From positions 1-52,741 of the forward strand of contig JAUCBJ010005860.1 of the NCBI GenBank assembly GCA_032718475.1: DNA of 52,741 bases, in the 5' to 3' direction. The position numbers were made by a program, and so were the translations under genes. Position 1 is the first letter of the stretch. Each line of letters opens with the position of its first letter. This document shows, piece by piece, positions 20,594 to 51,629 of this stretch. Below the pieces are notes generated by a model. The model saw nothing but the letters and a program-made list of their open reading frames with translations, did no database searches and was not told where the DNA came from. Source of the stretch: Nemertoderma westbladi (taxonomy: Eukaryota; Animalia; Xenacoelomorpha).

Positions 20594-20749
20594 AGGAATA
20601 TAGGAAACCTGAATGGAAATCGTCTGAATCCCTTTATATTTACTGTTATTGAATTTCTTCCCAAACCTGTTCCAAACCTCATAATTTACCCGATGCAGAT
20701 CTAGTTTAACCGGGAAGGAGCCGATTATTATGTGAAATTTGTTTTCCAG

Positions 20750-20871
20750 GTAAATCCAAGAAACGGGTGGGGTTTGATACTACGGGGGATTCGTACAGGA
20801 TTATAACACCTGCAGTTATAGCGAACAGACGTGGTGTAGGACGGTCAAAGGGTGGAGTGGAAAACTCTAAG
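20750..20871 (+). CDS. MKI67: Ki-67-like gene, short exon (not in the ORF track)
   Basis: Acceptor tttgttttccag ends at 20749. Phase 1 entry reads GKSKKRVGFDTTGDSYRIITPAVIANRRGVGRSKGGVENSK without a stop. Consensus donor AAG|GTAAGT at 20872. Confidence 0.65.
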
Positions 20872-28134: not shown

Positions 28135-28399
28135 CAGACTCGCTGGCGCCAGGGCCCTCTCCTGCCACAATAGACCCATTCATAGCTACTCCACTTCACG
28201 AATTGAAACTCGTAATCTGTCATACAGGCAAAGCCTTTGGCTCAATTGGGCGCAAATGGCTTTAATAGCCATGAACAATCAACCGGTTGGTATAATTACC
28301 ATTGAATACGGGCAAACAAGCTTTCACACCTGGGGGACAATCTGGGTGTTGGTTAACTCTAAGAGTTCCATCATTGAATCGGCCAGACTCAGTGGCGCC
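28135..28399 (+). promoter_or_regulatory. Putative BMP-responsive enhancer module M1
   Basis: CAGAC-N5-GGCGCC at 28135-28150 and 28384-28399; TCACACCT at 28324; ACAATAGACCCATT at 28167. Confidence 0.7.
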
Positions 28400-29491
28400 A
28401 GTCGCCGCCTACTCAAATTATCAAATAAGGATCAATCACAACCACCAAGTAAGTTAGTCGTATCTCGAAAGGGGATCCACCAGTGACATTGTGAATGTCA
28501 TGCTTGTCTTATCATGGGATTCTTAACGTCTTTTATGATGTCTCCATAGGGGATCAAGATCATTGGTCCACCCGAGAAGACGTTATGTGGTGTATACCGT
28601 TACCGTTTGGAAAAACAAAGACTGGTAGTCTATATCTGTAATCTGCAGGCCTTGTCCCCGTGCCTTCCTTCTTGAAACCTTTTCTTGAACATTAGGATCG
28701 TCAGCAAATGTTTCATTGTTTGGTGAAAAAGGTGACTTCTTGGTATGACGCTTATCATAAATCCCCTTCTTAATTCATATTTTTCTATACCGTGTGTGTC
28801 TGTGTAATTAATATGTGCACAATTAACCCGACGTCCCCTCACCTGCATTTAGTAGTTCGCATTCGTATCCAGGAAAGAAACATACCCTACGTCGTAGCCA
28901 ATCGCTGCATTACAAATTGAACTAAAGCAGGGCGTGGCATTACTATGGGCTGGAATATCGGGAAGAATTATTCTAAATGTATAATTCCGCCGTTCAGTGC
29001 CTCAGTTGAATCGACATTAACGTTTAACAGATTTATGTATTCCGAGTTCGAAAAAAAATACATGCTGAAGATGCGGGGGCAGCTTTGCATCTCTTAATTG
29101 TGCAACAATAGACGAATCAGCAACTCTAGTTGTGGAGTTGAAATGCAAACATAACTTGTGCAGTCAAGACAACTTAGACAACTATTTGCACTCAGGGAGG
29201 GCATCAATAATAATTTGACATTGATTGAATATTCTGTTTTTAGTTTATTTTGTTCAATCGAATGTTCAGTTGAATGTTGTAAATGTAAGCCAGCATCTCA
29301 AATTTACTAAGTTAGGTATAAGCTGAGACCTCGCCATTCAGACGAGTGGACGAGTCGTAAAATTAATTCGATATTTTATTAATTAATATTGATCTATTAT
29401 TTGAAAACTATTATTGTTCGTATAATTATTTTTAAGCTATTTGTAGAAAGTTTTTTGATTAGATTTTTTAAAATTATATCTAATACTGATT

Positions 29492-30634
29492 ATGTGGTAC
29501 GATATCGGAGCTCTGTTGTTTAACCAACTCATTCGATGTCTCGATTCCTGCCGATATTGGCTATCATTCAAGAGGATTTCCTCTCAATGTTTCTCAGCGT
29601 TTGTGGGAGTTCCGGCAGCAATACTTATGGCTTCCTGCGGCATCATCCCATTAATTACCACAAATATTATATGCCACTTAATTATCGGTCGAACTTTCAT
29701 TAAATATGAATTCCGACACCAACGAACAGATTTTCTACTTTTCGTCGGGTTATTTACGTACATATGGGCCTTACTATTCTTTATATTTCACATTGCGCCG
29801 CTGGGTGGACTCAGTAACTTCGCCATGGTGTCGCAGACTTGTCTGTTTGCGCTGACGCTGATGTCTGTACTGGTAACTAAGGTGCGGAACCCGGGGGTCT
29901 TGCGAGAGTCGCTCGCCCCTATCGGAGGACCACATACAGCAGTCCCGGCCAGTCTATACTGGGGAACCAACGGACCCTACCTGGGAAGTTACTCCATGTT
30001 GGACCACCACCACCACTCCACTAGTACCAGCACCGCATTGACTCCGGTGACTCCCCGAGCCGTGCCGGTGCGTCGACCCGACTCCATGGCTTGGTGCGGC
30101 TGCTGCGCGATGTGGGTGCCGCCACGATCAGCTCACTGCCGCGTCTGCAACCACTGCGTGCGACGGCTGGACCACCACAGTGCGTGGTTGGACTGTTGCG
30201 TCGGAATAAACAATCAACGTTTCTTTCTACTCAGTTTGTTGATCTTCGTTGTTTCTACCTGGTGGCGCCTTGCAGTCTCTTTCCCTTTACTCTGTGAGCC
30301 CAGTTGTCTGGCCGCCACATACGAGCCACTGACTTGCGCCAGTCTAGCTATCTGCGCATTTACCGGCTTTACAAACTCCACATTTACATTGATTTTACTG
30401 AAGCAAATAGTTTTCGTCTCCCGGAACATGTTGTGCGCAGAACTTATTGGCCTATTGAAGCAGGCACGAGTCCCTATTTTGTACGGACGTCTAGCAACAC
30501 TCCGGGTTTACGGGGGTGCCGCTAGGAAATACTCGAAATCCTGGAATCGGGGAGTTCTACTAAACTGGGCCGAGTTTATGAGGCCGGAGAAATACGAGGA
30601 TGGATATATAAACAACGTATATGAATCCGTCTAG
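29492..30634 (+). CDS. zDHHC palmitoyltransferase-family protein (ZDHHC23-like), intronless, with DHHS instead of DHHC
   Basis: Cys-rich domain WCGCCAMWVPPRSAHCRVCNHCVRRLDHHSAWLDCCVGINNQRFF, NPG motif, several hydrophobic TM segments, and C-terminal WNRGVLLNW (PaCCT-like). The subfamily call is from recalled similarity. Confidence 0.88.
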   Translation: MWYDIGALLFNQLIRCLDSCRYWLSFKRISSQCFSAFVGVPAAILMASCGIIPLITTNIICHLIIGRTFIKYEFRHQRTDFLLFVGLFTYIWALLFFIFHIAPLGGLSNFAMVSQTCLFALTLMSVLVTKVRNPGVLRESLAPIGGPHTAVPASLYWGTNGPYLGSYSMLDHHHHSTSTSTALTPVTPRAVPVRRPDSMAWCGCCAMWVPPRSAHCRVCNHCVRRLDHHSAWLDCCVGINNQRFFLLSLLIFVVSTWWRLAVSFPLLCEPSCLAATYEPLTCASLAICAFTGFTNSTFTLILLKQIVFVSRNMLCAELIGLLKQARVPILYGRLATLRVYGGAARKYSKSWNRGVLLNWAEFMRPEKYEDGYINNVYESV

Positions 30635-30834
30635 AACTCAGTGATAATACAGTGCAATGAGTGGGCGTGCTTTCTATGTTACACATTGAATTTAATAGAT
30701 GCAGTGATATAGAAATAGTAGGAAATAATGTTTACAGTGGTAGAGATTGAAGATTCACGGTGGCACATTTTTTGTGAACGTTTTTACATTGTTGTATTTG
30801 CATTGTACAGTAGGTTGTAGCACATGTTACAATA

Positions 30835-32457
30835 CACGAAGTGGGGCCTTCGCGCTGCACGTGACTTAAATTTAATTTAAGTACTAATTCGAAAGTATTA
30901 CTGTATTAGCAAATTTTAAGCAGATTTCGCCTAATCACTTTTTACCTCTTTCATTTCTATTCAGACATTTCTGACTCTAGCGGTATAGTGAGAACTGAAG
31001 ATGGATTAGGGTCTCCAGCCCCACAAAGACACAGCCTATGGATGAATAGTACATACGTACATCGGCCAAGTTTCATCTTGAATAACGGATACCGAAATGA
31101 GAGACGGATCTCACTTTCAGAAATTTCGTCGTATAGCGGCAGACCGATTAAATCTCCCCCCCCCCCCACAAAGACGCAGCATGTGGTCCAGAATATATGG
31201 CAAGATTCAGCTTAAACTGATTAAAATCAATGAGACGGGAGGAATCTATTCACTCTCAGGCATAAAGTAGTCCTATAGCGGGTGACTGTTGAACTGATTT
31301 TCAACAAAACAAATTTTCAACTTGGCAGCTTTAAATTCGACAAAGTTATAAGCATGTCAATATCATAACGACGACAACGATTTCACTTTCAGACATTTGG
31401 CCCTCTAGCGGCAGACTGGAGAACTGCAGATGGATTCGCCTCCTTTGAAAGTCACAGCTAATGGTCTAATACATATCTGCCAAGTTTCAGCTTAAACGGA
31501 TTAAAAGCAAAGAAATGGGAGGGCATTTAATGTTTAGACATGTGGCCCTCTAGCGGGAGACCATTGCACTGATGGTGTCTGAAAGTCTCTCAAAAATCTC
31601 AACTTTAGCTCATATTGATACCTACAAATTTTCAACTTGGCAGCTTTAAATCCGACAAAGTTATTAGCATGTCAAAATCGTAACGACGACAACGATTTCA
31701 CTTTCAGACCTTTGGCCCTCTAGCGGCAGACTGGAGAACTGCAGATGGATTCGCCTCCTTTGAAAGTCACAGCTAATGGTCTAATACATATCTGCCAAGT
31801 TTCAGCTTAAACGGATTAAAAGCAAAGAAATGGGAGGGCATTTAATGTTTAGACATGTGGCCCTCTAGCGGGAGACCATTGCACTGATGGTGTCTGAAAG
31901 TCTCTCAAAAATCTCAACTTTAGCTCATATTGATACCTACAAATTTTCAACTTGGCAGCTTTAAATCCGACAAAGTTATTAGCATGTCAAAATCGTAACG
32001 ACGACAACGATTTCACTTTCAGACCTTTGGCCCTCTAGCGGCAGACTGGAGAACTGCAGATGGATTCGCCTCCTTTGAAAGTCACAGCTAATGGTCTAAT
32101 ACATATCTGCCAAGTTTCAGCTTAAACGGATTAAATGCAAAGAAATGGGAGGGCATTTAATGTTTAGACATGTGGCCCTCTAGCGGGAGACCATTGCACT
32201 GATGGTGTCTGAAAGTCTCTCAAAAATCTCAACTTTTGCTCATATTGATACCTACAAATTTTCAACTTGGCAGCTTTAAATCCGACAAAGTTGTTAGCAT
32301 GTCAAAATCGTAACGACGACGACGACGACAACGACGACGACGACGATGACGACGACAACGACGACGACGACGACGACGACAACTATTTGCATAAATTGAC
32401 CCACCCCCTAACAGTGTCAATTCGCTAAGGCTCCGCCAACTTCGTGGCTCGCCCCAC
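30835..32457 (+). mobile_element. HINE/DINE-1-like non-autonomous element with an internal 315-bp tandem array and (GAC)n microsatellite
   Basis: 5' CACGAAGTGGGGCCTTCGCG has an imperfect inverted copy at ~32423-32446, and the element ends GCTCGCCCCAC. (GAC)n at ~32314-32380. Confidence 0.6.
31311..32320. repeat. 315-bp tandem repeat, about 3.2 copies
   Basis: aaattttcaacttggcagc at 31311, 31626, 31941 and 32256. Confidence 0.95.
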
Positions 32458-34564
32458 ATAGCTACACTCTGACTACGGTGGCTTGGTAATATTATATTAA
32501 AGAGGTTAGTTAGTTAGAGTGTTACACAAAAATGTCTTGATTTGATGCCACGTTATTTTGTTATTGGTGGGGTGTACAGTACAACTTGTGTAAAACTTGT
32601 CTCTTGTGTTTACTTCTTTAGTTTAATCCAATGTAATGTTTAATTGTTTAATGTTATGTTTAATCCAAATGGTAGTCATTCCTGTGAATTTGATAATTTT
32701 CTCATTTCACTGAATGGTTACGCAGTGGTTGATATTGCAGTTAATTGTAACAGTCATAGAAGACCCTGCAGCAAAAACTATTGATATAGGAACTTGACTA
32801 AGTGTCTTCTCACCTCCATCAGTTATCTATATTGTTAACCCATTCTATTCGCCACAACTTGAATCATCACGTGAACAATCCACTACTTGACATGACATCT
32901 GAGTTAAATTCGTGGAAACTAGTGAAAAAAAGTATTACGTTCGTGTTTATTTTAGCGACAGAAAGTCGCTAAATTTTGGTGTTATAGAGTGCTGCCCTCT
33001 TGTATTAATTGTCCGGCCTGATGAACCGTGGACTTAGAAGGCATCGAGTTCGATGTCCGTTCCTTATCGTATTTTTTGGGAAAAGGAATATATTTTGATT
33101 TCATATTGTATTTGTTTGCTCTAATTGGAACTTTGAGGTAGATTCTCTCAACAACTCATTTTATATGTGGATGTGGGATCCGGATATCGTAACCTGCTCA
33201 TTTCCCTTACCGCCTAGCAAATACGCCGGTTTACACGGCAACTTTGCTCAGCCACCAGCAACTTCATTTTGAACTTGTTCGCAGTTAAACCTGGCAATTA
33301 TTTTCACAGCAACTTCGTGTTTACACGGGAAGTGCCACGACCGGCCTTGAGAAATGGGAACAACATTTACAATATATATTTTAGTAACTCATTAAATTAT
33401 TCAAGATCTTCTGGTCTCTAGTATTGCGTTTTAAACTCGTTGGTCGTCTAGGCAGAGAAGTAATAATGACAGATAGGAGGAATCCCTGAAATGGAAAGTT
33501 ATCGACTCTCCTAACCTCACTGCCGCTGCGCGCCCGGTCAATAAAATACCTCGAGCAAAGTGATATAAAACATTTTCAAGCCAAAGGCATTTCCAAATCG
33601 CCTTTCATCGTATCTGGAATATTTATTGAAACAAAATAAAACTGTGATGATTAATTAAACTCCTTAGAATTCCAGAACATAAAATGAAAGCCGACGAAAT
33701 TACCCCTATATTCAGGGATCATTAACGGATCGTTAACGGATCATTGTTGGGGTCCACGAAGATTCTGCGTCGAAGAAATAATGGTTTCATAAATGTCAAG
33801 GATAATTATAGAAGATTATAACTAGTGAATGATTAAAGACTGCTTCTTTTCTTCAATTAGTTGTAGGTATTTCTTTATTTTGGACGCGATGGGATCTAAA
33901 GTCACCCAATAGTGCGTGAATACTGCTCAGCTCAGCTCAACCAAAAATTCGAACGAATTACCTAATAGGTAGGCCTACTTCTTAACGATTAAATGGTAAT
34001 AAAAATCGCCACAACGTTAGAATAACGTCCCACTGTCACCTGTCCCATTCCCTTAACAAATGGATAATAATTTGTCTTTGAGAAGAGAAATTAATCACCG
34101 AAATGGGACTTTCAAATACATTTCTACTGTAGTAATACCGTAAATGCTTGAACTACAATTTCCCATTCGTAATGTTTTATACACTTAGCAAAGGGTATGG
34201 GGTATGGCGTATGGGTGGAAAGGATCCAAATCTGTCGTAATTTTAGGTTTGTGTATGATGTTGATTTTCTTTTAATTTTGGTCTGGCCCTGGAGACGGGC
34301 ATGCAGGGCCGGATTTAACCATTATATTTGAGCCTTAACGGGATGTGAACATTATAAACTTTTTAAAGAAGGATTCTTATCTTATTATCTTTTAAACACC
34401 CATTGTTATCTTTAGAAATTAAAATTTAAGAAGGTGCGAGGAAAATTATTATTTAAATATTGGCATTGACCATAAAACTGTCCCTAAAAAATTAACGGAG
34501 GTGTTCCTCCATATGGGTTTTCTTTAATTTGCATGTCCCCAATGTAGTTGAAAATGCATAGCAA

Positions 34565-34786
34565 GGTGTGTAAACGCTACGCCGACGGCCGACAGCCGAG
34601 AACCAAAGCCGACAACCCTTTAAAACGCGAATTAAAGCTAATTATACATTGGGGGAAAGGAACAGAGTTGAAGGTTATTCGAACCAAAACAATAAACGAG
34701 AGTGATGAATACAGGTTACAGCTCCATATTTGTCATTGTCGGCAGTGGTTGTCGACTGTCAGCTGTCGGCGTAGCGTTTACACCCC
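34565..34786. mobile_element. MITE with terminal inverted repeats and a 7-8 bp TSD
   Basis: GGTGTGTAAACGCTACGCCGAC...GTCGGCGTAGCGTTTACACCCC flanked by (C)ATAGCAA on both sides. A related copy lies in opposite orientation at ~50862-51052. Confidence 0.8.
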
Positions 34787-34986
34787 ATAGCAAGTGATAT
34801 ACCACCGAAATGAGAATCATCAAAAGTAATCAGAACTGTGAAAAAATTTTGCCGCAGCGGCTTACATGAGATTATAAAAATTTCACTAAAAGCACTCCAT
34901 CAGTATAATATTTTCCATTTATTTTCATTTTTGGATATTACATTTTTTGGAACCAGCATATAGCAAATACTGTATATCAACAAACC

Positions 34987-35280
34987 GCCCATGTGAAGAA
35001 TACCAGGATTTCACTCTTCGGTCGACTTTTTAATGGAATTTTATATATGAAGATTTTTCATTTTTTTAAATTTATCTCTATTAAGTGTTTTATAGCGCTA
35101 ATTTATGGGCCGCTAATTTCTGTCTTATAACCTGTACATATACTAATTCGTTTATTGTTTTGGTTAGATTCAGCCCTTCTGTAACCTGTGTTTTTGGTGA
35201 AAACCTGGTATTCTTCACATGGGGATATCTGCAAAGTGAAATGTAACGGCAGAAAGTCTGGTATTCTTCACATGGGCCCA
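34987..35280. repeat. Dispersed repeat family (CCCATGTGAAGAATACCA sub-repeats)
   Basis: Related copies at ~24128-24320, ~35958-36090 and, reversed, ~50600-50785. Confidence 0.7.
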
Positions 35281-36420
35281 AACAAACGGTTATGAAATGG
35301 CGGAGGAGTAGTGTTTTCGGTATCCCCCCACGCCCCCCCCCCCCCCCCCCCCACACCGGCTCCCTTATTTTTACTTAAGTTGTAAATTAAGGCAGCCGAT
35401 CCGTAAGAGCAAACTTGAAGACCATTGGTTGGCATTCCTGTCGCGTCTGCTAAAAGACACCTTATTGATAATCAGATGAAGATGAATTTGTAATTTACAT
35501 GGTTATCGCTAACTGTGGAGGTGTTATGTAGCAGAGAGAAGACCGGCAGTGCATACTAATTGTGTGGAATTGCACCGATATATCTACAGTATGAACTCTG
35601 TATGAATGCTGCTTCCTTTGAACAATATTTTTCTCAATATAAAAAAATAAACTAATTGACCCGTCTCAAAGGAATATTCCTTGGCGTTTGATTACAACTG
35701 CGCCAATCAATATTTTCTTACCTGCCGCCTTTATTTATTGCTTTTGTTTCCCGCGGTGACTGCCGGATTTCCTGCCCCACCCGACCTTACTTGGACCACT
35801 CCCTTCTCTGAGCGGCCATGTAATTACTTCGTAGATCCTAGAGTATCCAGCCTAATATTGTCATAATCCAGTAATCGGACTTAGAGAATAAATGAATCTC
35901 AGGTACCTGGTTTTTCCAAAAGTGTCGGTACTACTTTCATTCATGATACTGCGCCACTGGTGAAGAATACTAGGTTTCCATTTTTCAGTCGGCATTTTAA
36001 TGAAAATTTATATATGATTAATTTTTATTTTTTAAATGTATCCTTATTATTCTCCTGTACATAATGCGTTTATTGTTTTTGTTTGATTCAGTATCGTTGC
36101 AGTAAAATAGTTACAATAGCAAGGAAATTATTGTTCACAATGGTCAAATGAAGTTAGTTATATTCGGATATTGACCTGCTACAAAACGCAGCGAACTCTT
36201 AATCTGAATCAATTATAGGTGGGTGATTTTTGGACCGAGATTCAACAAAGTTTATGCTGAATAACAAGGTGTTCTCTCCCAATAGCCAGCAGGTGGTCTT
36301 AATTCCTAAGGTTTATGTATGCCTAATGTGTTTCGTTGTTGTATAAAATACAGTATCGGGTAGGTGGATGGGAGGAGCTTTCCTAACTCTGGGTTTTGGC
36401 GACAGTGAAGGCCATCGCGT

Positions 36421-36679
36421 CAGACAGTCTGGCGCCGTGGCCTCTTCAACCACACAATAGACCCATTGATGGGCCCATGATCGGTGAGTGGGGGCCATCT
36501 CAAACGGCCTATACATATCAGGGGGGACATTGAGAGGGCTCAGTTAACTACCGTCCCTCGTCAATTAACAGCCTGTACAGGAGATGGGCCCAACAACACG
36601 TTTTCACACCATCAGGGCGAAGTAATGATTTCTTAGGCTCAACGAGCTGGCATTGTGTAGGCTCAGACAACCTGGCGCC
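36421..36679 (+). promoter_or_regulatory. Putative BMP-responsive enhancer module M2
   Basis: CAGAC-N5-GGCGCC at 36421-36436 and 36664-36679; TCACACC at 36604; ACAATAGACCCATTGA at 36454. Confidence 0.75.
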
Positions 36680-38900
36680 AGGGGACTTAACTGTGTTTGT
36701 CATAACCTCGAGGTTGGGCGCTTGTTAACGATATGTTATCAGCAAAGATCTCCGTGTGTACTAATACTGTTGTATGTTGTTGTATGCTTTGTTTGTGGCA
36801 CGATGTAGCTTGTGAGATTGGAGATTGAGCGACTCTATTTGTAATATGAATTTACAATAACAACCGTGTTTATGCGATTCAGCGATTCAAGTTTCAGGCA
36901 TATCCCTTTTGTTAATGATACAATACACATTCGCGGTACTATACGGGAATCATAACACGATACAATGAGGACATGCGCAATGAGATGTACGTAAACGAAC
37001 AACCTCGGTAACATACGACCACAGATCCGTATTCCTCAAGCACGACAGTCTTGCCAGCCACAACTGTAACAGATGAGACTGTTACATGCTGCCCGCACAT
37101 GATCATGTCCTATGGCTATGACAGGCAACTGTGATGAGATGAAGAATGGCCAGTAATTGACATTACTGATCGTTTGTCCAACTCCAATACATCGGTATTT
37201 GTGATCTTGACAATTCAGATGATTGAACTTGGAGGTGTCGCATCGTAGAGGTGCAGGGTGATGCCCGGCTCCTCTTAGTGTTGTACACAGTATACAGTAG
37301 CTGGCGGCGGAGGTACTCATAGTCCGATATGATTATATGTTAAACTAATCATCACAATTAAACTATAAACAATAAGTAATGGTTATTTATTATTTGATAT
37401 GCCACTCTATGTTATGACGTCATATACCACAAGAAACTTTCTGGATTATAATTAATTACTATATTGCTATATTTAAATCACTATTATATTACTAAATTAC
37501 TATAATTAAACCTGCTACAGCCTACAGACAGGAATACATGCGTAGGAAATATCTAGTTACTTACTGTAGTAGCAAAGCCCACTGATTTCTTTCCAGTATG
37601 TTTCCGGTTCCGGTTGCCATATAGGCCTACCTACCAGGTATCTGGTTTCGCGATTTCGGATTACATTTTCTTTAGGAGCCCATTCTCATCTTTCCCCTCT
37701 GCCCGCCGCCACTACTCCTCTCTTCCCACAGCCACTCCCCTCTGCCCACCGCCGGCCCACTCCTTACCCCTTAAGGACAAAGTATATTTTTCGATTTTAA
37801 TCACCCAAGAAGTAGAATGGAATCGATTTCATACATGCATATTGAATCGTAGGTAGATTCGTAGATATTAATTAGTTAATTTACAATTCCATTTTATTGG
37901 TTTGGTATATCAGTTTGCTTGGAGATACCCAGAGGGTGGTCATGGTCGCAAACCACCAGGCGCTGCGATTTCAGTAACCTAGCCGATGCTTTCTGCTTCT
38001 GCTGTATGCGGTTGCATGATGGGATGGATAGTTAGTTAGATAATGGAAGATATTTATTTTATTTGATATGGAATTATGTTCTGATTGCAGTTGCAGATTA
38101 TTTATTTAAAATGTATTATAATAATATGTTTAGTTAATATAGATGTAATATGTGGAACTATTTCCGAATGAGATGAAGTTATTTTATTCGAAACTTGGAA
38201 GATTACATTCTATATTGCGGAAATCTACCTATACCAGTTCTAAACGGAGTGATTTAAAATATTATAGACCTGCATAATCGGCTAACACCACTGAAGGATG
38301 TGTTTATTAAATATAAATATTCAACAACTTTACTTTAATTTTGCATACACAAACAAATACAAAAGTACTGCAGTGTGCACAGTACATACAACATCAGCTC
38401 GGTCATTGCAGTAATCAACGCCAATGTCACAAAGTCTGGCACTCTCCTAAATGACATCTGTTGCAGCCCACATACCCATCGAGCTATCGAGGAAGCCTAG
38501 TACGAATTTTGAAGTTTAAGTATACTGCGCATGCTGCACAGTCTATTCGGTAAACATCTATGTCAACGGTTGTTTCTGCTTTGTTATGAAGATAACATGT
38601 TCAATTGTGGTAATGGTGCACAATTAGTGACATCGGGTTTATTCGACCGGACCGACCAATTCTTTTCGGTCAACTTCCCCTCTCCCAGCATGACACTGGA
38701 ATTATAATTTTAATTAGCTTGGAAAAATCGTATATCTGCCTCAATCATTAACTGCTAATATTGAGATCCCCCTTAGGTGTTTCCCGTACAGTTCGGCGAA
38801 GGCGTTGCCTAACTAACTATACAATGGCGCCTTGGTGGCCCACACCTGAACGTGTCAACATTCTCAGATAATCTGTGAAACTAGGAATTCATTCAGTCTG

Positions 38901-38963
38901 ATTGGCCCCAATGCTTTGCGCGCTTTGCCATTGGTCGGTTGCTCCCGGCCCCAAACATATATA
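38901..38963 (+). promoter_or_regulatory. Core promoter of the homeobox gene (CCAAT boxes plus TATA-like element)
   Basis: ATTGG at 38901, CCAAT at 38908, ATTGG at 38930, and TATATA at 38958, ~190 bp upstream of the ATG. Confidence 0.5.
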
Positions 38964-39147
38964 GTTGGATGTAACTCATGGAATGTTTATCGTCATTTCC
39001 AACATCCAAGTTCCATTTGTTATTCCTTATTATTGTTATTTTCCCAAGTTTCTATAATCACTTTACCTCTGCCTTTATATTTTTTGTATTATTACTTTCC
39101 TTATCACTTGTCACTCACACGTCAGTGATATACGCATATCGAACACG

Positions 39148-40449
39148 ATGGTATTTAATTTCTCTGTTGAATTTCTTGCCGAGAGCTGCGCTCGTCCAGC
39201 CAGCGGGACCACGCAAGGGCGGGTCTATGGTCTAATAACACCGCCGATAAGTCCAGACAGTGGTAACGGGTCACCCGAAAGGAAACTCAACTCTCAATCC
39301 ACAGATAACTTCAACTTTTGTTTCCATGGTAAGTCCTAAAGATATTTAAATATATTTTGATTATACCGTTTATTTATTAATAGTCCTGCATAACTGGTCG
39401 TTTCGGCTTGTTACAAACTTTTGTAAGCTCATTATTTCAAATAATTCAAAAAGGTAACATTCCAGTGCCATTTTATGTTATTCTATTTATAACTATGATT
39501 TATTTATATTTCATGTCTATAATAATATCTGATTATCTATTGCAGAAAATATGGAATTCAACGCCTCCAAGTTGGAAGAGATTGGCGACTACGATGATGA
39601 ATCCGATGTCACAAACAAGAAGGGATGCAATAAGAAATCCCGAACTTCCTTTACAGCCTGTCAGGTCGTCAAACTGGAGCAGAAGTTCCAATCCCAGAAG
39701 TACCTCGCAGCCGTGGAGAGAGGCGAATTCGCTGAGAAACTCGGACTCTCAGACACTCAGGTAATTTAGTGTTCGGGGCGAAATGTTATCCAATTCTTTA
39801 CTTTGTAAAACAAGAGTATCCCGGTATTTAAATGATTGGCCATAATTGTATTAGTGTTTTGTATCATTCTTTCTACTATATTGGTTCACAGGTAAAAATT
39901 GGAACAACAATAAATATATTTTTAATATTGTTTCTCCCTCAGGTTAAAACTTGGTTCCAGAACCGGCGAATGAAACACAAGCGGGTACAACAAGACATCG
40001 ACAACGCTGCCATAGCAACCAACTACTACAACCGACTGGTCAGTGGTTGCCCCCCACCTCCGGTCTACCACCCTGTGGCCTACCCGGAGGTCATACCCGC
40101 TCATATGGTTCCCCCGCAATCGCTGCACTACGGCGGCTTCCCGGGTTTAGCGCCCTCTAGCGAGGCCTTCCCGAGTCTGGGCGCCCCCCTGACCCCGCAT
40201 CTACTCCCGCCCGCCACCCAGCTGCCCCCTATGGGTCCCACCCAGCTGCCCCCTATGGGTCCCACCCAGCTGCCCCCTATGGGTCCCACCCAGCTGCCCC
40301 CTATGGGTCCCCCCACCCAGCTGCCCCCTATGGGACCACCAGTGCAGTCGCCCACCCGACTCGGGACCGAGTTGTGGCTCAACGCCAACCGTCTCCCCTG
40401 GGACATGCCCTACCCAGCCCTGACGGCACCCACCGGGGTCTACATGTAA
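39148..40449 (+). CDS. vent: Vent/Vox-like NKL-class homeobox transcription factor, 3 exons (39148-39328, 39546-39760, 39943-40449), 300 aa
   Basis: GT-AG junctions join in frame (phases 1 and 0). Homeodomain KKSRTSFTACQVVKLEQKFQSQKYLAAVERGEFAEKLGLSDTQ|VKTWFQNRRMKHKR has Thr47. N-terminus MVFNFSVEFLAES resembles the eh1-type FSV(D/E)WLAQS motif of Vox/Vent proteins. Pro-rich C-terminus. Confidence 0.85.
40213..40335 (+). repeat. Coding 24-bp repeat (TQLPPMGP), about 5 copies
   Basis: CCCACCCAGCTGCCCCCTATGGGT tandem in exon 3. Confidence 0.92.
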
Positions 40450-42462
40450 ACTCTTTACTCGTCGTCTGTTCCATGCGCCAATGCATATCAGACACGTGAA
40501 CTCATCTTACTCAATGCGAATTCTATTAACCGAACTCATAATTTATTCGCATCGAATTTCTATGCAAATACAAAGCCAGTTTAATTAATTGGCTAAATAT
40601 ATATTTTTACAACTCATCATATATCAGTCCTCATTGTTCTATTCAGTGGTATACATTGTCTGTACCAATCTTTCCCACCAGTTGCCTAAATATATAGTAA
40701 TCTGTGTTATACCGTCGTCCCATTCATTTAAACTCGCGAAGTTTAGTTATTGAATTTTTATTTACCTTTTTGAATTGTGAATAATTGAAATGAAATCCAT
40801 TAATGTCAATCGGAATCCCTTAATTGGGCCGCTATTCAGTGAATATTTAAATGTAGACGTTATCATTTCGAATATTCAGTTTGTTTGGTTCAAATTACCG
40901 TGTGTCTGTGTCTGTTTTTTATTTCATTTAGAGGTGTCGGTACTTTTGAATTAATGCAATATTGTATTTATCGGTCGCTTTGTATATATAATTTTTGTAC
41001 ATAATATTATGCCGTGTCTATTCGTACTACGTAATTACTTTAATTAAAATATTAGAAATGAAATGAACCCATTTGTTTTCTCTGTATTTAACCGCGGGGC
41101 CCATAGACTGGCAAACTGACTAGACAAGTTAGTTTGGTGGGTTGGAGAAGTCTAATAAATAAAACTGGCTAAAGGGAGTGAAGTATAAATCTTAAAATAA
41201 GTTATAAAGCCCAGATGAAATAAATGTTTCCCCCTGAGGAAAGACGATTACGAAAACTATTGGACGAAAAGTCCGGGACGAAACATCCGTACCGAATTAT
41301 CATAAAAGAGTGTCTGCGGTGAGCTGTCCAACGGAGACAGGGGGGAAACTGGACGCAAATCCCATCCTGGCGAATTAATATCCCGCCTCACAATGTTAAA
41401 TTCTCAATTTAAGGAAAGGAGCAGGTTATAGTGGCACGTTATTTTAAACAAAACAATAAACTAAACACAATAGAACTGGTTACAGTTTTATCTTTGAGAG
41501 TCGGTTCAATCAAACCAGTTCAACAGGTTCAACCAAAATAACAACGGACTAACGGAATGTCATAAAGATGACTTGAACGCAGTTTCTCTTTTGAGTTTAG
41601 GTTATGCCTACAAAGTTTGTTTCGTTTTTACTATAAATTCTAGTAAAATTATATAATTGGAGTTTTGAATCCGCCGAAAGTCCCCAATAACTGAAGCAAA
41701 ATATAACTATTTACAAACCCTGGCGGATATCCATGTCGTATGAAGATTAACTATCACAGGTCGTTGTCATAAATGTTTTTATAACTGTTTCACGACTGCG
41801 ACTAAGTTTACATCGCAACTGGCTATTATTTACTAGTCGGATCGTGAAATATTTTGGAATAGGTCGATCGCCCCACAAACTTTGACAAGTTCTACACCTC
41901 GGCGCTTCTAAATCATTCGAGTTTTATGCGTAAGGAATCTTTGAGGACAGCTACAGGTACAGGATGGCTAACTATAACCAAAATAATAAACGAATTAATA
42001 GCAATGTAGGTTGCGAGAACCAACTGAAAGCTATAAAACAGTTGAATCGGAAGAAATTCAATGTCAAATATTTTAATTTATAAATTTCCAATATTTTGAT
42101 ATCATTCAACCCAAAAGAAAAAATCTGGGATCCAGCCATCCCCCACCCCGGGAAGTGTTTTACTTTAACAAATTCACTCTTAGGTTTCTTCTATGTTTCG
42201 TATTACATCCGTCATCCGGTGAAAATGAAAAAGGAAAAAGATAATATAAGATTGAAGAGACAACAGCATGAACTGTAATGAGGCAGAGTCAAACAAATCA
42301 CGGGGGGGGTGGGGGGTATTCTACAAAGTTTATATACCAAATACAATGACAGGCAGTCAACCCAACATTCCACGACATTCCCTGTAGGATTACGGAACCG
42401 AATTAACAACTGGTCTTTAGCCGGTAGTTATGTCGCCCAAGCCCCAAGCAAATAGAATCACT

Positions 42463-42649
42463 GGCGCCAGGATGTCTGGGTGCGATAAAAGGGCCTGTCT
42501 TCGCTAACTACCTTCCAATTGTGCTTTTGGTGTGAATGGTAAGCGCGGCGTTTAATGTGAGCTAACAGATTAGCAGTTCAATTTGCTGTGCGGTAGGCGT
42601 TTGAATGGCCCTATTACCGGTGGAGTGGGCCCTGGCGCCAACGAGTCTG
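42463..42649 (-). promoter_or_regulatory. Putative BMP-responsive enhancer module M3
   Basis: GGCGCC-N5-GTCTG at 42463-42478 and 42634-42649; GGTGTGA at 42529. Confidence 0.72.
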
Positions 42650-43132
42650 GCTTCTAGTGGCATTACCGATATACGAGAGAGTTCTGGGAGGAGGATTGAG
42701 GGCCCAAGTGATTGGTCTCCGCGTTTTCCATCCAGGTAACCGGTAATTTGGGCGCCGATGGTGACAAACCTCGCTTCGTTTCACAACCTAAGTGTCCCAT
42801 TTACCCGGAAACTATTTCACCCTCTTTGCTGCATCGCCTCCCTTTACGAAATGTCGTTAAAACTGTTTGACTGTACATTGATCTCATTGCGGACTGTGTG
42901 TAATGGAATAGGGACTAACGCTTTGTTAATTACAGTTGGGTGCTTTGGTCGAGTATTTTAGTTGTAATTAGGAATTAGCGGATTTGGTATTTGGACCATT
43001 TACTGTTTACTGACCCGCGTTGATACAATCTACATAAGAACTTAATAAGCAGAAATTAAAACAAAAATACAAATTTTTCATGAATATATATACATTTTCA
43101 ATCCCGACCTTTCCTGTCGCTGTCTGTTACCC

Positions 43133-44768
43133 TCCAAGTGCACGGGCCAGTTTTTACGGCCCGGGCCCGCTAAGTTTAATTTTTCTAAACATTACAGAAG
43201 GCATTCGACTCCATCCATAGAGGTAAAATGCTTGAAATCCTAAGAGCTTATGGAATACCAGAAGTAATTGTTGCTGGCATTGGATTGTTATATTGTGACA
43301 CAGAAGCGCAGGTACTCTCACCAGATGGTGAAACTGAGTTTTTCTCAATCCTGACTGGCGTACTGCAAGGTGACACATTAGCACCATTACTATTTGTAAT
43401 TGTGCTGGATTACGCAATGAGGACGGCCACAAAGGGTGAAGATCTGGGATTCACACTTCAAGAACGCAGAAGTAGTAGATATCCGGCAACTACAGTCACA
43501 GACACCGACTTTGCGGATGACATCGCCCTGCTATCTAATACGCTAGCAGATGCACAGCTTCTACTAAATAAAGTGGAGAGGGCTGCTAAGGAGGTTGGAT
43601 TGCATATAAATGCTACCAAGACCGAATTCATGACCTTTAATGGTGATGGAAACTCGACAGCCATTGATAATAATAAACTAAGGAAGGTCAATGACTTCCA
43701 GTACCTTGGATCATGGATAGAGAGTAGCAAAAAGGACATAGAAGTTAGGAAAGCAAAGGCTTGGGTAGCTCTATCAAAAATGGATACCATCTGGAAATCA
43801 GATCTCTCCAGGCACCTGAAGACTAAGTTCTTCCGAGCCACAGTGGAAAGTGTATTTTTATACGGGGGTGAGACCAGGACACTGACTAAATCACTTGAAC
43901 AACGAATTGATGGTTGCTACACAAGACTACTAAGGGCAGCCCTAAACATCAGCTGGAGACAACACATGACAAACGCCGAGCTTTATGGTACAATACCACC
44001 TGTATCAACCACCCTCCGTGAACGCAGACTAAGATTCAGTGGGCACTGCTGGCGAAGGAAAGACGAGGTCATACCAGATCTACTTCTCTGGCAACCACTC
44101 ATGGAAAGCGTAGTCGTGGACGACCTGCCATAACATATATAGATCAACTTGAAAGGGATACTGAACTTGGGAGAAACGAAATTGCGACAACTATGGAGAA
44201 TCGGGAAGCCTGGAAGGATCTCATTTCCACTGTCCGAGTTCGCTCGACCTAGTAGTAGTAGTAAACATTACAGCATAAAATAAAATTTTAACTTTCTGAT
44301 CAATCTACATACCTTGATTCCAAATACTACAGTATATCGGTTTTTCACCGTGAGCCAATGTTCTGGTTGTTTGTACATTAGAAAACTCGAAATATACTAT
44401 ACACACGTTGTGTAGGTCTGTCATGTTAAAACATTACCGGTATGTTTGTTGTCTACTTAGTAATATCAGAATATGTTTGTGAGTCTGTAATAAAGCAAAA
44501 GGTACGGTACATTACAAAGTCAAACAAAGAAACAAATAAATCATGAAAAAACCCTTGTTACAGGAAAATATAATATTGATATTTAATTTCATTTTATTTT
44601 GTAAAGAAAAAAAGTGTAACAAAAATTTTCATATTATTGTGTTTTGAAAACTGGATAATATAATTATTCAATAATAGCGGACTTTCTAATATTTAGAATG
44701 CGGCCCAAGCCCGGACCGGCCCGCGGACTGACCCGGCCCAAGCCCGGACCGGCCCGTGTCCATCTCTG
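43133..44768. mobile_element. Degenerate hAT-like non-autonomous element hosting the LINE insertion
   Basis: 8-bp direct repeat TGTTACCC at 43125-43132 and 44769-44776. The right end reads CAGAGATGGACACGGGCC on the minus strand; the left end retains only CACGGGCC; GGCCC-rich subterminal repeats. Confidence 0.5.
43198..44261 (+). mobile_element. 5'-truncated RTE-like non-LTR retrotransposon (reverse transcriptase C-terminal part)
   Basis: KAFDSIHR, GVLQGDTLAPLLF, FADDIALL and FQYLGS RT motifs. (TAG)n tail. 12-bp TSD TAAACATTACAG at 43186-43197 and 44262-44273. One frameshift near 44096. Confidence 0.93.
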
Positions 44769-44850
44769 TGTTACCCCCCCCCCCCATACACATCATTCTT
44801 TACTCCTTTCCCTCAATATTTGTAACAACATCGTTTTTAGTTTTGGTTAT

Positions 44851-47800
44851 TTGATATGAACCAGCCCACCGTTCACTTGGATATGAACCAACCCAACGTT
44901 CACTTGGATATGAACCAGCCCAACGTTCACTTTGAAATGAACCAGCCCGACGTTCACTTGGATATGAACCTGCCCAACGTTCACTTGGATATGAACCAGC
45001 CCAACGTTCACTTGGATATGAACCAACCCAAAGTTCGCTTGGATATGAACCAGCCCAACGTTCATTAAGATATGAACCAGCCCACCGTTCACTTGGATAT
45101 GATCCAGCCCACCGTTCACTTGGATATGAACCAGCCCACCGTTCACTTGGATATGAACCAGCCCAACGTTCACTTCGTAATGAACCAACCCAAAGTTCGC
45201 TTGGATATGAACCAGCCCACCGTTCACTTGGATATGAACCAGCCCACGGTTCACTTGGATATGAACCAGCCTACCGTTCACTAGGCTATAAACCAGCCCA
45301 ACGTTCACTTGGATATGTACCAGCCCACCGTTGACTTGGATATGAACCAGCCCAACGTTCACTTGGGAATGAACCAGCCCGACGTTGACTTGGATATGAA
45401 CCTGCCCAACGTTCACTTGGATATGAACCAGCCCAACGTTCACTTGGATATGAACCAGCCCACCGTTGACTTGGATATGAACCAGCCCAACGTTCACTTG
45501 GGAATGAACCAGCCCGACGTTGACTTGGATATGAACCTGCCCAACGTTCGCTTGGATATGAACCAGCCCAACGTTCATTTAGATATGAACCAGCCCACCG
45601 TTCACTTGGATATGAACCAGCCCACCGTTCACTTGGATATGAACCAGCCCACCGTTCACTTGGATATGAACCAGCCCACGGTTCACTTGGATATGAACCA
45701 GCCTACCGTTCACTAGGCTATAAACCAGCCCAACTTTCACTTGGATATGAACCAGCCCACCGTTGACTTGGATATGAACCAGCCCACCGTTCATTTGGAT
45801 ATGAACCAGCCCACCGTTCGCTTGGATATGAACCAGCCCTACGTTCACTTGGATATGAACCAGCCTACCGTTCACTAGGCTATAAACCAGCCCAACGTTC
45901 ACTTGGATATGAACCAGCCCACCGTTGACTTGGATATGAACCAGCCCAACGTTCACTTGGATATGAACCAGCCCACCGTTCGCTTGGATATGAACCAGCC
46001 CAACGTTCACTTGGATATGAACCAGCCTACCTTTCATTTGGATATGAACCAGCCCACCGTTCACTTGGATATGAACCAGCCCACCGTTCACTTGGATATG
46101 AACCAACCCAACATTCGCTTGGATATGAACCAGCCCAACGTTCACTTGGATATGAACCAGCCCACCGTTGACTTGGATATGAACCAGCCCAACGTTCACT
46201 TGGATATGAACCAGCCCACCGTTCATTTGGATATGAACCAGCCCACCGTTGACTTGGATATGAACCAGCCTACCGTTCACTAGGCTATAAACCAACCCAA
46301 CGTTCACTTGGATATGAACCAGCCCATCGTTGACTTGGATATGAACCAGCCCAACGTTCACTTGGATATGAAGCAGCCCACCGTTCACTTGGATATGAAC
46401 CAACCCAACATTCGCTTGGATATGAACCAGCCCAACATTCACTTGGATATGAACCAGCCCACCGTTGACTTGGATATGAACCAGCCCACCGTTGATTTGG
46501 ATATGAACCAGCCCACCGTTGACTTGGATATGAACCAGCCTACCTTTCATTTGGATATGAACCAGCCCACCGTTCACTTGGATATGAACTAGCCCACCGT
46601 TCACTTGGATATGAACCAACCCAACATTCGCTTGGATATGAACCAGCCCAACGTTCACTTGGATATGAACCAGCCCATCGTTGACTTGGATATGAACCAG
46701 CCCAACGTTCAGTTGGATATGAAGCAGCCCACCGTTCACTTGGATATGAACCAGCCCAACGTTCACTTGGATATGAACCAGCCTACCTTTCATTTGGATA
46801 TGAACCAGCCCACCGTTCACTTGGATATGAACTAGCCCACCGTTCACTTGGATATGAACCAACCCAACATTCGCTTGGATATGAACCAGCCCAACGTTCA
46901 CTTGGATATGAACCAGCCCACCGTTCACTTGGATATGAACCAGCCCAACGTTCATTTGGATATGAACCAGCCCAACGTTCATTTGGATATGAACCAGCCC
47001 ACCGTTCGCTTGGATATGAACCAGCCCACCGTTCACTTGGATATGAACCAGCCCACCGTTCACTTGGATATGAACCAGCCCAACGTTCTCTTGGATATGA
47101 ACCAGCCCAACGTTCACATGGATATGAACCAGCCCACCGTTCACTTGGATATGAACCAGCCCAACGTTCATTTGGATATGAACCAGCCCACCGTTTATTT
47201 GGATATGAACCAGCCCACCGTTCACTAGGCTATAAACCAGCCCAACGTTCACTCGGATATGAACCTTTGACTTGGATATGAACCAGCCCAACGTTCATTT
47301 TGATATAAACCAGCCCAACGTTCACTTTGATATGAACCAGCCCAACGTTCACTTGGATATGAACCAGCCCACCTTTGACTTGGATATGAACCAGCCCAAC
47401 GTTCATTTTGATATAAACCAGCCCAACGTTCACTTTGATATGAACCAGCCCAACGTTCACTTGGATATGAACCAGCCCAACGTTCACTTGGATATGAACC
47501 AGCCCAACGTTCACTTGGGTATGAACCAGCCCAACGTTCACTTGGATATGAACCAGCCCAGGGTTCACTAGGCTATGAACCAGCCCAACGTTCACTTGGA
47601 TATGAACCAGCCCACCGTTCACTTGGAAATGAACCAGCCCAACGTTCACTTGGATATGAACCAGCCCACGGTTCACAAGGCTATGAACCAGCCCTACGTT
47701 CACTTGGATATGAACCAGCCTACCGTTCACTAGGCTATGAACCAGCCCTACGTTCACTTGGATATGAGCCAGCCCACGGTTCACTAGGCTATGAACCAGC

Positions 47801-50590
47801 CCAACGTTCACTTTGATATGAACCAGCCCACGGTTCACTAGGCTATGAACCAGCCCAACGTTCACTTGGATATGAACCAGCCCAACGTTCACTTTGATAT
47901 GAACCAGCCCACGGTTCACTAGGCTATGAACCAGCCCAACGTTCACTTGGATATAAACCAGCCCACCGTTCACTTGGAAATGAACCAGCCCAACGTTCAC
48001 TTGGATATGAACCAGTCCACCGTTCACTTGGATATGAACCAGCCCAACGTTCACTTGGTAATGAACCAACCCAACGTTCCCTTTTATATGAACCAACCCA
48101 CCGTTCACTTGGATATGAACCAACCCACCGTTCACTTGGATATGAACCAACCCACCGTTCACTTGGATATGAACCAACCCACCGTTCACTTGGATATGAA
48201 CCAGCCCACCGTTTACTTGGATATGAACCAGCCTAACGTTCACTTGGTAATGAACCAACCCAACGTTCACTTGGATATGAACCAGCCCACGGTTCACAAG
48301 GCTATGAACCAGCCCTACGTTCACTTGGATATGAACCAGCCCAACGTTCACTTGGATATGAACCAGCCCACGGTTCACAAGGCTATGAACCAGCCCTACG
48401 TTCACTTGGATATGAACCAGCCTACCGTTCACTAGGCTATGAACCAGCCCTACGTTCACTTGGATATGAACCAGCCCACGGTTCACTAGGCTATGAACCA
48501 GCCCAACGTTCACTTTGATATGAACCAGCCCACGGTTCACTAGGCTATGAACCAGCCCAACGTTCACTCGGATATGAACCAGCCCAACGTTCACTTTGAT
48601 ATGAACCAGCCCACGGTTCACTAGGCTATGAACCAGCCCAACGTTCACTTGGATATAAACCAGCCCACGGTTCACTAGGCTATGAACCAGCCCAACGTTC
48701 ACTTTGATATGAACCAGCCCACGGTTCACTAGGCTATGAACCAGCCCAACGTTCACTTTGATATGAACCAACCCACCGTTCACTTGGATATGAACCAACC
48801 CACCGTTCACTTGGATATGAACCAACCCACCGTTCACTTGGATATGAACCAACCCACCGTTCACTTGGATATGAACCAGCCCACCGTTTACTTGGATATG
48901 AACCAGCCTAACGTTCACTTGGTAATGAACCAACCCAACGTTCACTTGGATATGAACCAACCACCGTTCACTTGGATATGAACCAACCACCGTTCACTTG
49001 GATATGAACCAACCCACCTTTTACTTGGATATGAACCAGCCCAACGTTCACTTTGATATGAACCAACCCACCGTTCACTTGGATATGAACCAACCCACCG
49101 TTCACTTGGATATGAACCAACCCACCGTTCACTTGGATATGAACCAACCCACCGTTCACTTGGATATGAACCAGCCCACCGTTTACTTGGATATGAACCA
49201 GCCTAACGTTCACTTGGTAATGAACCAACCCAACGTTCACTTGGATATGAACCAACCACCGTTCACTTGGATATGAACCAACCACCGTTCACTTGGATAT
49301 GAACCAACCCACCTTTTACTTGGATATTAACCAGCCCAACGTTCACTTGGTAATGAACCAACCCAACATTCACTTGGATATAAACCAGCCCACGGTTCAC
49401 TAGGCTATGAACCAGCCCAACGTTCACTTTGATATGAACCAGCCCACGGTTCACTAGGATATGAACCAGCCCAACGTTCACTTGGATATGAACCAGCCCA
49501 CCGTTCACTTGGAAATGAACCAGCCCAACGTTCACTTGGATATGAACCAGCCCACGGTTCCAAAGGCTATGAACCAGCCCTACGTTCACTTGGATATGAA
49601 CCAGCCTACCGTTCACTAGGCTATGAACCAGTCCTACGTTCACTTGGATATGAACCAGCCCACGGTTCACTAGGCTATGAACCAGCCCAACGTTCACTTT
49701 GATATGAACCAACCCACCGTTCACTTGGATATGAACCAACCCACCGTTCACTTGGATATGAACCAACCCACCGTTCACTTGGATATGAACCAACCCACCG
49801 TTCACTTGGATATGAACCAGCCCACCGTTTACTTGGATATGAACCAGCCTAACGTTCACTTGGTAATGAACCAACCCAACGTTCACTTGGATATGAACCA
49901 ACCACCGTTCACTTGGATATGAACCAACCACCGTTCACTTGGATATGAACCAACCCACCTTTTACTTGGATATGAACCAGCCCAACGTTCACTTGGTAAT
50001 GAACCAACCCAACATTCACTTGGAAAGGAACCAGCCCACCGTTGACTTGGATATGAACCAGCCTAACGTTCACTTGGATATGAACCAGCCCACCGTTCAC
50101 TTGGATATGAACCAGCCCACCGTTCATTTGGATATGAACCAACCCACCGTTCATTTGGATATGAACCAACCCACCGTTCACTTGGATTTGAACCAACCCA
50201 CCGTTCACTTGGATATGAACCAACCCAACGTTCACTTGGATATGAACCAGCCTACCGTTCACTTGGATATGAACCAACCCACCGATCACTTGGATATGAA
50301 TCAACCCACCGTTCACTTGGATATGAACCCACCCAACGTTCACTTGGATATGAACCAGCCTAGCGTTCACTTGAATATGAACCAGCCCAACGTTCACTTG
50401 GGAATGAACCAACCCAACATTCACTTGGATATGAACCAGCCCACCGTTCACTTGGATATGAACCAGCCCACCGTTCATTTGGATATGAACCAACCCACCG
50501 TTCACTTGGATATTAACCAACCCACCGTTCACTTGGATATGAACCAACCCACCGTTCACTTGGATATGAACCAGCCCACAGTTCATTGGA
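44851..50590. repeat. 27-bp minisatellite, ~5.7 kb, about 210 copies
   Basis: Unit TTGGATATGAACCAGCCCA(A/C)CGTTCAC with recurring variants. Confidence 0.98.
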
Positions 50591-50861
50591 TAGAAGTAAA
50601 CCAGACTGTCTGCTGTTATATTTCACTTTGCAGATTACCACATGTGAAGAATACATTACAGGTTTTCAATAAAACATGTATTCGAAAATGTATTAAAAGA
50701 AATTAAAAAATATAAAATTTTCAAAAATAAAATTCCAATAAAAACTCGACCGAAAAGTAAAAACATGGCATTCTTCACATGGGCGATAAGATGAGGCTTA
50801 CCGTGAACCCTTAGATATCAAAATGTTAATCGCTATAACCGTAGGATGTAGGGTAGATTCA

Positions 50862-51052
50862 GGATGTAAACGCTACGTCGACAACCGACAACCGACACGA
50901 CAACGAAAACTGTCAAACTGATGCATGTGCTCATGACTCTCGTTTACTGTTTTGGTTAGAATAACCTTCCACTGTTACCTGTTCCTTTCCCTCAATTTAT
51001 GATTAACATTAATTAGAGATAAATGGTTGTTGGTTGTCGACGTAGCGTTGAC
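50862..51052. mobile_element. Degenerate MITE, same family as 34565-34786
   Basis: TGTAAACGCTACGTCGAC...GTCGACGTAGCGTT inverted ends; interior matches the reverse complement of the 34.6-kb copy. Confidence 0.7.
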
Positions 51053-51364
51053 TGTTAAATAATTGAATATATCAAAATTGACTACCTTCGCATTTCCATT
51101 CCACGCAATCCTACAATTCCTCAATAATATACCTACCATTCTCCGTCTCCAGTGTTATTATATGGAGACCTTTCATTAATAATAATAGTCATTTTAAGTA
51201 CCAATAAAACATTTGACTATAGGGGGCCATAAATACGCACTAAACACACCCTCGATCATAAATAAAGGAACAATTAATCCACATAGTTTCGGGGTTACTA
51301 CTCATCTAACAATCGTATAACGAGCGGGTATTACTTACACCGAGCCCCGGTCGCAAAACCGGCT

Positions 51365-51629
51365 GGCGCCGCGAAGTCTGGCCTCCACAATGTGTCCACT
51401 TCCGCGCCTACTCAGGGATGAATTGTCCGTTTGGTGTGAAAACTTGTTTGCGTGTATTCAATAGCAATTAGGTGAACGGGGCAATTGTTCGAATGCATTA
51501 AGTAGGTAGCGGCCCATTGGCGTGCCCTTAACTTGGCCCCGTGGAGTAATGAGGTAACCATTTACCCCGTAGTGAGCGAATCAATAGGTGTATTGTCGGT
51601 GTGAAGGGTCTATGGCGCCCGACAGTCTG
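51365..51629 (-). promoter_or_regulatory. Putative BMP-responsive enhancer module M4
   Basis: GGCGCC-N5-GTCTG at 51365-51380 and 51614-51629; GGTGTGA at 51433 and ~51598. Confidence 0.72.

Follow-up and report, generated by a model that had tools for sequence, protein, structure and literature searches.

The stretch analysed here is contig JAUCBJ010005860.1 of Nemertoderma westbladi, taken over its full 52,741 nucleotides (the window). It carries a Vent-like homeobox gene flanked by eight exact copies of the composite Smad site GGCGCC-N5-GTCTG, a known element of bone morphogenetic protein (BMP) signalling. The eight sites come in four pairs, and each pair marks a diverged copy of the same non-coding module of 187–265 bp. 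Judged from sequence, there is about an even chance (roughly 0.5) that these modules are locally duplicated, BMP-activated enhancers of the Vent-like gene. The broader claim, that they are bound by Smad proteins and serve this gene, is probably right, with activation accounting for about two thirds of those odds. The modules and their parts are as follows:

28135–28399, minus strand: module A, 265 bp; Smad site 28384–28399, T-box-like site 28323–28330, inverted Sox-like pair 28168–28182, Smad site 28135–28150.
36421–36679, minus strand: module B, 259 bp, the most diverged copy; Smad site 36664–36679, T-box-like site 36603–36610, Sox-like pair 36455–36469, Smad site 36421–36436.
42463–42649, plus strand: module C, 187 bp; Smad site 42463–42478, T-box-like site 42529–42536, Sox-like pair 42602–42616, Smad site 42634–42649.
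51365–51629, plus strand: module D, 265 bp; Smad site 51365–51380, T-box-like site 51433–51440, Sox-like pair 51581–51595, Smad site 51614–51629.

Four of the eight Smad sites lie on each strand, with pair spacings of 249 (A), 243 (B), 171 (C) and 249 bp (D), and 100 dinucleotide shuffles of the window contain none (mean 0.00, maximum 0). Coordinates, strands and spacings agree exactly with a preliminary description of this DNA, and so does the non-coding placement that it gave, with none of the eight sites falling within any of the three homeobox exons or an open reading frame with a Pfam match. Each site has the GGCGCC palindrome, an exact GTCTG, the 5-base spacer and the active orientation of the ID-type and silencer elements, and six of the eight start with GGCGCCA, as in the fly activating element. 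The window holds 15 GGCGCC hexamers, 8 of them with GTCTG at spacer 5. In a scan of spacers 0–15, the only match other than N5 is a single N2 at 7268, the 14 other spacers being empty, and the reversed half-site, GGCGCC-N5-CAGAC, does not occur in the window. The looser pattern GRCGNC-N5-GTCT has nine matches versus 0.27 expected; the ninth (30264) is inside the coding frame of a DHHC palmitoyltransferase gene. A lone GGCGCC at 38826, approximately 160 bases before the transcribed start of the homeobox gene, fits only the looser activating-element pattern.

The preliminary description valued these sites by the chance of an 11-base pattern (4^-11), which is the wrong null, and it did not recognise the pairs as copies of one module with additional motifs in common. 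The sites occur as two in each of four homologous modules and are thus not independent; the informative contrast is that between invariant cores and scrambled spacers (see below). Homology of the modules is evident from alignment: A and D share 61% identity over 277 nt (E=5e-11), and A and C share 75% over 92 nt (E=1e-10). Profiles made from three copies recover the fourth with E values of 4e-22, 3e-13 (B) and 9e-16, and C as two pieces (8e-7 and 2e-6). In its middle, C is approximately 75 bp shorter than the other copies. A profile search found no fifth copy in the window, the first 28 kb being empty. With the Smad sites removed, five of the six module pairs outscore at least 297 of 300 shuffles, and the score of B–C is reached by 14 of 300. 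With all three motifs removed, similarity remains for A–D (z=13) and A–C (z=6.5). The modules are G+C islands (0.49–0.54 versus 0.37–0.39 in the surroundings) and contain no TCF sites. Internal duplication of the module halves was considered and rejected (z at most 0.8).

All four copies have the same motif order: Smad site, T-box-like GGTGTGAA, inverted Sox-like pair, Smad site. The 8-mer is found at offsets of +69, +69, +66 and +68, and the Sox-like pair, two inverted half-sites with a 4-base gap, is at −32, −33, −32 and −33 relative to the second Smad site. All five occurrences of GGTGTGAA in the window lie within modules, a second T-box-like 8-mer of module D being at 51598–51605. The 8-mer resembles the T-box core of a published study (PMC6065435), and the pair resembles a palindromic SoxE site with a 4-base spacer (PMC4445065).

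Since the module copies share an ancestor, they form a footprint of their own. Invariant across the four copies are 22/22 columns of the Smad cores, 0/10 of the spacers, 8/8 of the T-box-like site and 9/15 of the Sox-like pair, against a background of 21/127 other inner columns and 4/107 in the outer flanks. Identity between copies is 49–59% for whole modules and 36–50% for non-motif DNA. At the inner background rate of 0.165, 22/22 invariant core columns have a probability of 6e-18, and an 8-column invariant run anywhere in 130 positions has one of 7e-5, with columns treated as independent in both cases and the T-box-like motif found post hoc. The earlier remark that N5 varies between constant flanks is fully borne out by these counts, and invariant cores beside scrambled spacers are the pattern that would be expected from selection on protein-binding sites. 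Variation within the species points the same way. Of the 25 differences listed for the contigs that span A and B, one is inside a module, against approximately 4.8 expected (P ∼ 0.03), and none is on a motif. This signal is weak; it comes from one sample (runs X2 and X3 are the same), and up to four unlisted substitutions near B could erase it, some gaps being unlisted as well. Contigs over module C show no differences.

Copy number bears on a different explanation, in which the modules are relics of an old dispersed repeat or transposon with diverged copies genome-wide, four of them brought here by local hopping, and any Smad function is secondary. We searched the contigs of three DNA runs at ≥80% identity over modules A, B and C. 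For A and C, each DNA run has only its own spanning contig, and for B there is little more, whereas a true dispersed repeat at 41334–41501 sums to a depth of >100,000 in the same three runs. The preliminary description had named a high-copy dispersed repeat as one case that would undo its proposal; with next to no extra contigs at 80%, A, B and C are unlikely to belong to a young repeat. The test is limited to copies at least 80% alike, however, and the four modules are only 49–59% alike, so that equally diverged copies elsewhere would be missed. The setting also suits a repeat, with many other repeats nearby and the four copies facing both ways. Nevertheless, neutral decay would not spare 22/22 core bases while altering every spacer column, and all four copies are within 11 kb of the homeobox gene. 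Neither Rfam nor tRNA matches were found in the modules, whose ends are too far decayed for target-site duplications to be placed. Terminal inverted repeats were also considered and rejected: their z values of 4.1–4.6 in B and C vanished once the palindromic cores were removed (z at most 1.3). We regard an old repeat as very unlikely.

It is also conceivable that the modules arose independently and converged on one motif order, or that they are structured RNAs or small exons. Module B has little beyond the motifs in common with the other copies, and the segment similarities are patchy. Yet motif spacings are nearly identical, three module lengths fall between 259 and 265 bp, and A–D and A–C are homologous outside the motifs. 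RNA structure was rejected, consensus folding of the four sequences giving a covariation term of +0.25 with pairs that are mostly the palindromes, and no reading frame is open in all four copies. The chance of convergence, RNA or exons is, in our view, remote.

As a negative control, we used 29 metagenome loci from a Vent alignment scan, all of which are NK2-type by eye, so that the scan yielded no orthologous locus. The 191.5 kb around these NK2-type homeobox loci (many of them redundant) contain no exact Smad site or module, and the full-module pattern had no match in metagenome contigs. Four near-identical loci have one GRCGNC-N5-GTCT site approximately 1.7 kb upstream of the matched NK2-type stretch (L003, position 5369; L004, 576; L007, 8271; L009, 8254).

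Module B lies 2.5 kb upstream of the ATG of the homeobox gene and module C 2.0 kb past its stop codon; module A is beyond the DHHC gene, approximately 1.1 kb upstream of it, and module D ends 1.1 kb short of the window end. The other features that matter for this layout are:

29492–30634, plus strand: DHHC palmitoyltransferase gene, between module A and the homeobox gene; PF01529, E=1.5e-21; covered by an X4 contig.
43189–44133: reverse-transcriptase fragment.
44853–50592, no strand: 27-bp satellite, 213 copies; 5.7 kb, making up most of the C–D distance together with the reverse-transcriptase fragment.

We infer that one ancestral element was copied locally and that its non-motif DNA has since fallen to 36–50% identity. 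Modules C and D have the same orientation and are approximately 2 kb apart once the satellite and the reverse-transcriptase fragment are removed, consistent with a tandem copy; A and B have the opposite orientation. The stretch of module A that follows the T-box-like site is similar to that of D (0.71, z 9.1), and the stretch ahead of the Sox-like pair is similar to that of C (0.64, z 3.3), which suggests that different ancestral sub-motifs survived in different copies. An inversion of A+B as a block, giving D+C, was rejected, as B and C are the least similar pair, and so was a common flank of B and C as proof of duplication, as that piece has at least six copies in the window. The preliminary description had further seen the pairs as converging on the gene in a symmetrical array, to which we give no weight. 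If reading starts at GGCGCC and runs to GTCTG, every site is directed away from the gene; for the pairs to be ‘convergent’, reading has to start at the CAGAC end. A mirror arrangement of four units has a chance of 2/16, and the outer modules, at −10.7 and +10.9 kb from the gene, owe the right-hand distance mostly to the satellite and the reverse-transcriptase fragment. The symmetry is thus a product of convention and chance.

The gene between modules B and C is a spliced, three-exon NKL homeobox gene encoding a protein of 300 amino acids, for which Vent-like is the most fitting label. Its coding exons are:

39148–39328, plus strand: coding exon 1, with an N-terminal motif (residues 5–10) that we take to be eh1-like; contig 25 of run X4.
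39546–39760, plus strand: coding exon 2, with the homeodomain to residue 44; PF00046, E=4e-10.
39943–40449, plus strand: coding exon 3, with helix 3 (T47, Q50, M54) and a proline-rich tail.

Both GT..AG introns are skipped by contig 25 of run X4, and from such intron-skipping joints we infer that X4 is an RNA library (the automatic guess was DNA). Transcribed sequence extends 5′ to at least 38989, with a TATA-like box at approximately 38958, and X4 cover extends 3′ to 41228. X4 contigs are absent over modules A, B and C, a non-cover that is not evidential. A 24-bp coding repeat (40214–40334, 4.9 copies) gives rise to the proline-rich tail and has a 3-base deletion in X4.

The homeodomain carries T47, Q50 and M54. 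T47 and Q50 have been named as Vent features (PMC3033397); T47 is not diagnostic alone, since it is also present in non-Vent homeodomain matches. The most identical homeodomains among 150 matches are those of Patella and Priapulus (42/60), Glandiceps (41/60), and a nemertean, an anemone and a sponge (40/60 each), and the named vents, Saccoglossus and Ptychodera vent1, are 39/60 identical. Six of the 20 near clusters that were looked up bear a vent or pv.1 name. FastTree places the gene beside mollusc and nemertean Vent-like proteins (local support 0.91), and IQ-TREE (62 homeodomains, ≥31/60 identity) places it beside Priapulus and hemichordate vents (ultrafast bootstrap 50). The N-terminal eh1-like motif is closest to that of mollusc (oyster, limpet) Vent-like proteins. 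A Vent-like gene has been reported in oyster (PMC7566022), and Vent clusters have been reported in hemichordates (PMC4729200). The label given in the preliminary description can thus be kept as Vent-like, the gene being a putative rather than an established Vent orthologue. A word-index protein search with exon 2 gave no match, and an atlas look-up gave no finer label than ‘homeodomain’.

Vent genes are tandemly clustered in hemichordates and amphioxus (PMC4729200, PMC3033397), and the modules might be functional Smad elements that do not all belong to this gene: they could have been copied along with tandem Vent paralogues that are now lost or outside the window, or A and D could serve neighbours, D being close to the window end and A just upstream of the DHHC gene. 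Against this, tblastn found no second homeobox or homeobox remnant in the 52.7-kb window, and the 700-nt module flanks have only AT-rich pieces in common, the piece shared by B and C being the one with at least six copies. We consider such a division of the modules unlikely. The DHHC gene is a bystander or possibly a target of module A, and a housekeeping-type gene of this kind would seem an unlikely BMP target. The exact match of the X4 contig over this gene begins at 29463, after an AG acceptor, and the 39 letters that precede it are unplaced on 26850–29750; they may come from a trans-spliced leader or from a short exon further upstream. A word-index protein search with the DHHC protein gave no match.

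If the modules are BMP-activated enhancers, a complex of phosphorylated Smad1/5 and Smad4 would bind back to back at each GGCGCC-N5-GTCTG, with two such complexes on every module. Bound between them, a T-box factor and a Sox dimer would confine the response to one tissue or stage, and the four copies would raise its sensitivity or robustness. The induced Vent-like protein may then repress genes of the low-BMP side via its eh1-like motif. Selection would have kept the binding sites of the duplicated modules while the remaining DNA diverged. GGCGCC-N5-GTCTG confers BMP responsiveness in human-cell reporters, where its activity depends on the 5-base spacer and on this orientation and increases with the number of copies, and it is rare, with 45 Smad-bound regions across the surveyed data sets (PMC11907993). 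The composite activates in vertebrate reporters (PMC3439458). Amphioxus Vent1 is activated by BMP/Smad via six Smad sites (PMC3033397), and Smad1 and Brachyury cooperate at Xenopus ventx1.1 (PMC6065435).

The sign of the BMP effect is the main uncertainty. In Drosophila, brinker is silenced through this sequence by Mad/Medea/Schnurri (PMC3738585, PMC4161316, PMC6344883), and the modules could be brinker-like units, in which activation comes from the T-box and Sox sites, and Smad and Schnurri, recruited by the paired elements, silence the gene at high BMP and leave it expressed on the low-BMP side. All eight sites fit the strict GRCGNC-N5-GTCTG consensus, including the GTCTG that distinguishes the silencer from the fly activating element, and brinker has many such elements, 13 being predicted (PMC3738585). 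Ptychodera vent2 is ventral, with phosphorylated Smad1/5 (pSmad1/5) dorsal (PMC4571091), and the pSMAD1/5 targets of Nematostella include repressed as well as activated genes (PMC10849676). However, the Ptychodera evidence is expression only, and the GGCGCCA start of six sites is that of the activating element. Moreover, the composite activates in vertebrate cells (PMC3439458, PMC11907993), and the tested chordate Vent promoters are BMP-activated (PMC3033397). We therefore regard silencing as a serious, if rather unlikely, alternative. Of the BMP element proposed in the preliminary description, the consensus match and the selected look hold; activation had been assumed, although the Schnurri-dependent silencer of Drosophila has the same sequence.

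Besides the fly silencer, the Ptychodera expression pattern, the weakness of the polymorphism signal and the 80% limit of the copy test, several points weigh against BMP-activated enhancers of a Vent gene. With all three motifs removed, the four module pairs other than A–D and A–C are no better than shuffles. The T-box and Sox labels are resemblances noticed post hoc, and three of the four T-box-like sites have T before GGTGTGAA rather than the A that we take to be canonical. As for the gene, sponge and anemone homeodomains (40/60) are about as identical as the named vents (39/60), and the two trees put it in different vent-containing groups, without firm support.

The eight sites share cores, spacer and orientation with the ID-type BMP-responsive element (BRE) of ID1/2/3 and of Xenopus id3 and ventx2 (PMC11907993, PMC3439458). 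Unlike the ID-type BRE, they occur two per module, 171–249 bp apart, in four homologous modules over 23.5 kb, none of them in the proximal promoter, where there is only the looser match at 38826. Like the brinker silencer elements, they follow a strict consensus, with many elements around one gene for a transcriptional repressor; the available text on brinker does not describe its elements as copies of one module, as is the case here (PMC3738585). Amphioxus Vent1 and Xenopus ventx1.1/ventx2 likewise combine a Vent-type gene with several Smad sites, ventx1.1 with T-box and Smad1 input, but in them the sites are part of the proximal promoter, either individual CAGAC-type sites (six in amphioxus) or one BRE, whereas full composites flank the present gene at a distance (PMC3033397, PMC6065435).

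Duplication has been reported for 18.3% of fly and 33.9% of mouse shadow-enhancer sets (Ness, Kosztyo and Wunderlich 2026, PMC13345019). The modules resemble duplicated shadow enhancers in the homology of the enhancer body among several separate elements near one gene. They differ from the fly matches, which have a median of 18 bp at 93%, in being four colinear copies over most of their length at 49–59%, with only the motifs intact (PMC13345019). Several elements and a signature of duplication are thus present; overlapping activity, the defining feature of shadow enhancers, is here a candidate property. Our literature search (few subscription papers, most judged by title and the start of the abstract) turned up no description of an invertebrate whose Vent-like gene has duplicated modules of paired BREs. 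None of the ingredients is new, be it the element, BMP control of Vent or the duplication of enhancers; it is their arrangement that is unusually explicit.

If BMP-activated enhancers are the right explanation, comparing paralogous copies within a single genome would be enough to footprint a BMP enhancer’s full grammar, with no need for cross-species alignment. Four old copies that keep only their motifs would amount to a natural mutagenesis series and would supply candidate co-factors in the choice of targets by Smads, a choice that is only partly understood, and the modules would be ready-made reporter constructs. In a non-chordate, they would make BMP control of Vent genes and its sign directly testable; the literature that we found outside chordates consists of expression data only. 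A further proposal, which we make tentatively and with more doubt than belief, is that a non-chordate Vent-like gene is run by a four-fold Smad–T-box–Sox–Smad cassette, in which case the direct BMP-to-Vent link, with a T-box co-input as at Xenopus ventx1.1, would predate chordates, possibly with its sign reversed to silencing.

The window has an observed/expected CpG ratio of 0.80–0.92, which would speak against a vertebrate, and carries several other features. The short, very high-copy dispersed repeat at 41334–41501 lies just past the 3′ end of the homeobox transcript, and similar pieces recur across the window. An actin-like gene (25820–26947, plus strand) has one open frame, is 51–65% identical to actins of all groups and may be a divergent, lineage-specific actin. 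A 1042-codon open frame (4318–7446, minus strand) is proline/cysteine-rich, has no Pfam match and possibly encodes a secreted structural protein. The repeat-rich open frame at 15394–17794 (plus strand), also without a Pfam match, contains many lysine/arginine-glycine-proline units, which recall AT-hooks, and is followed by tandem arrays of 35 bp and 55 bp (17724–21941). A long, foldback-like inverted repeat spans 8654–12252, with arms of approximately 1.3 kb that are 89–100% complementary and a centre of approximately 0.9 kb.

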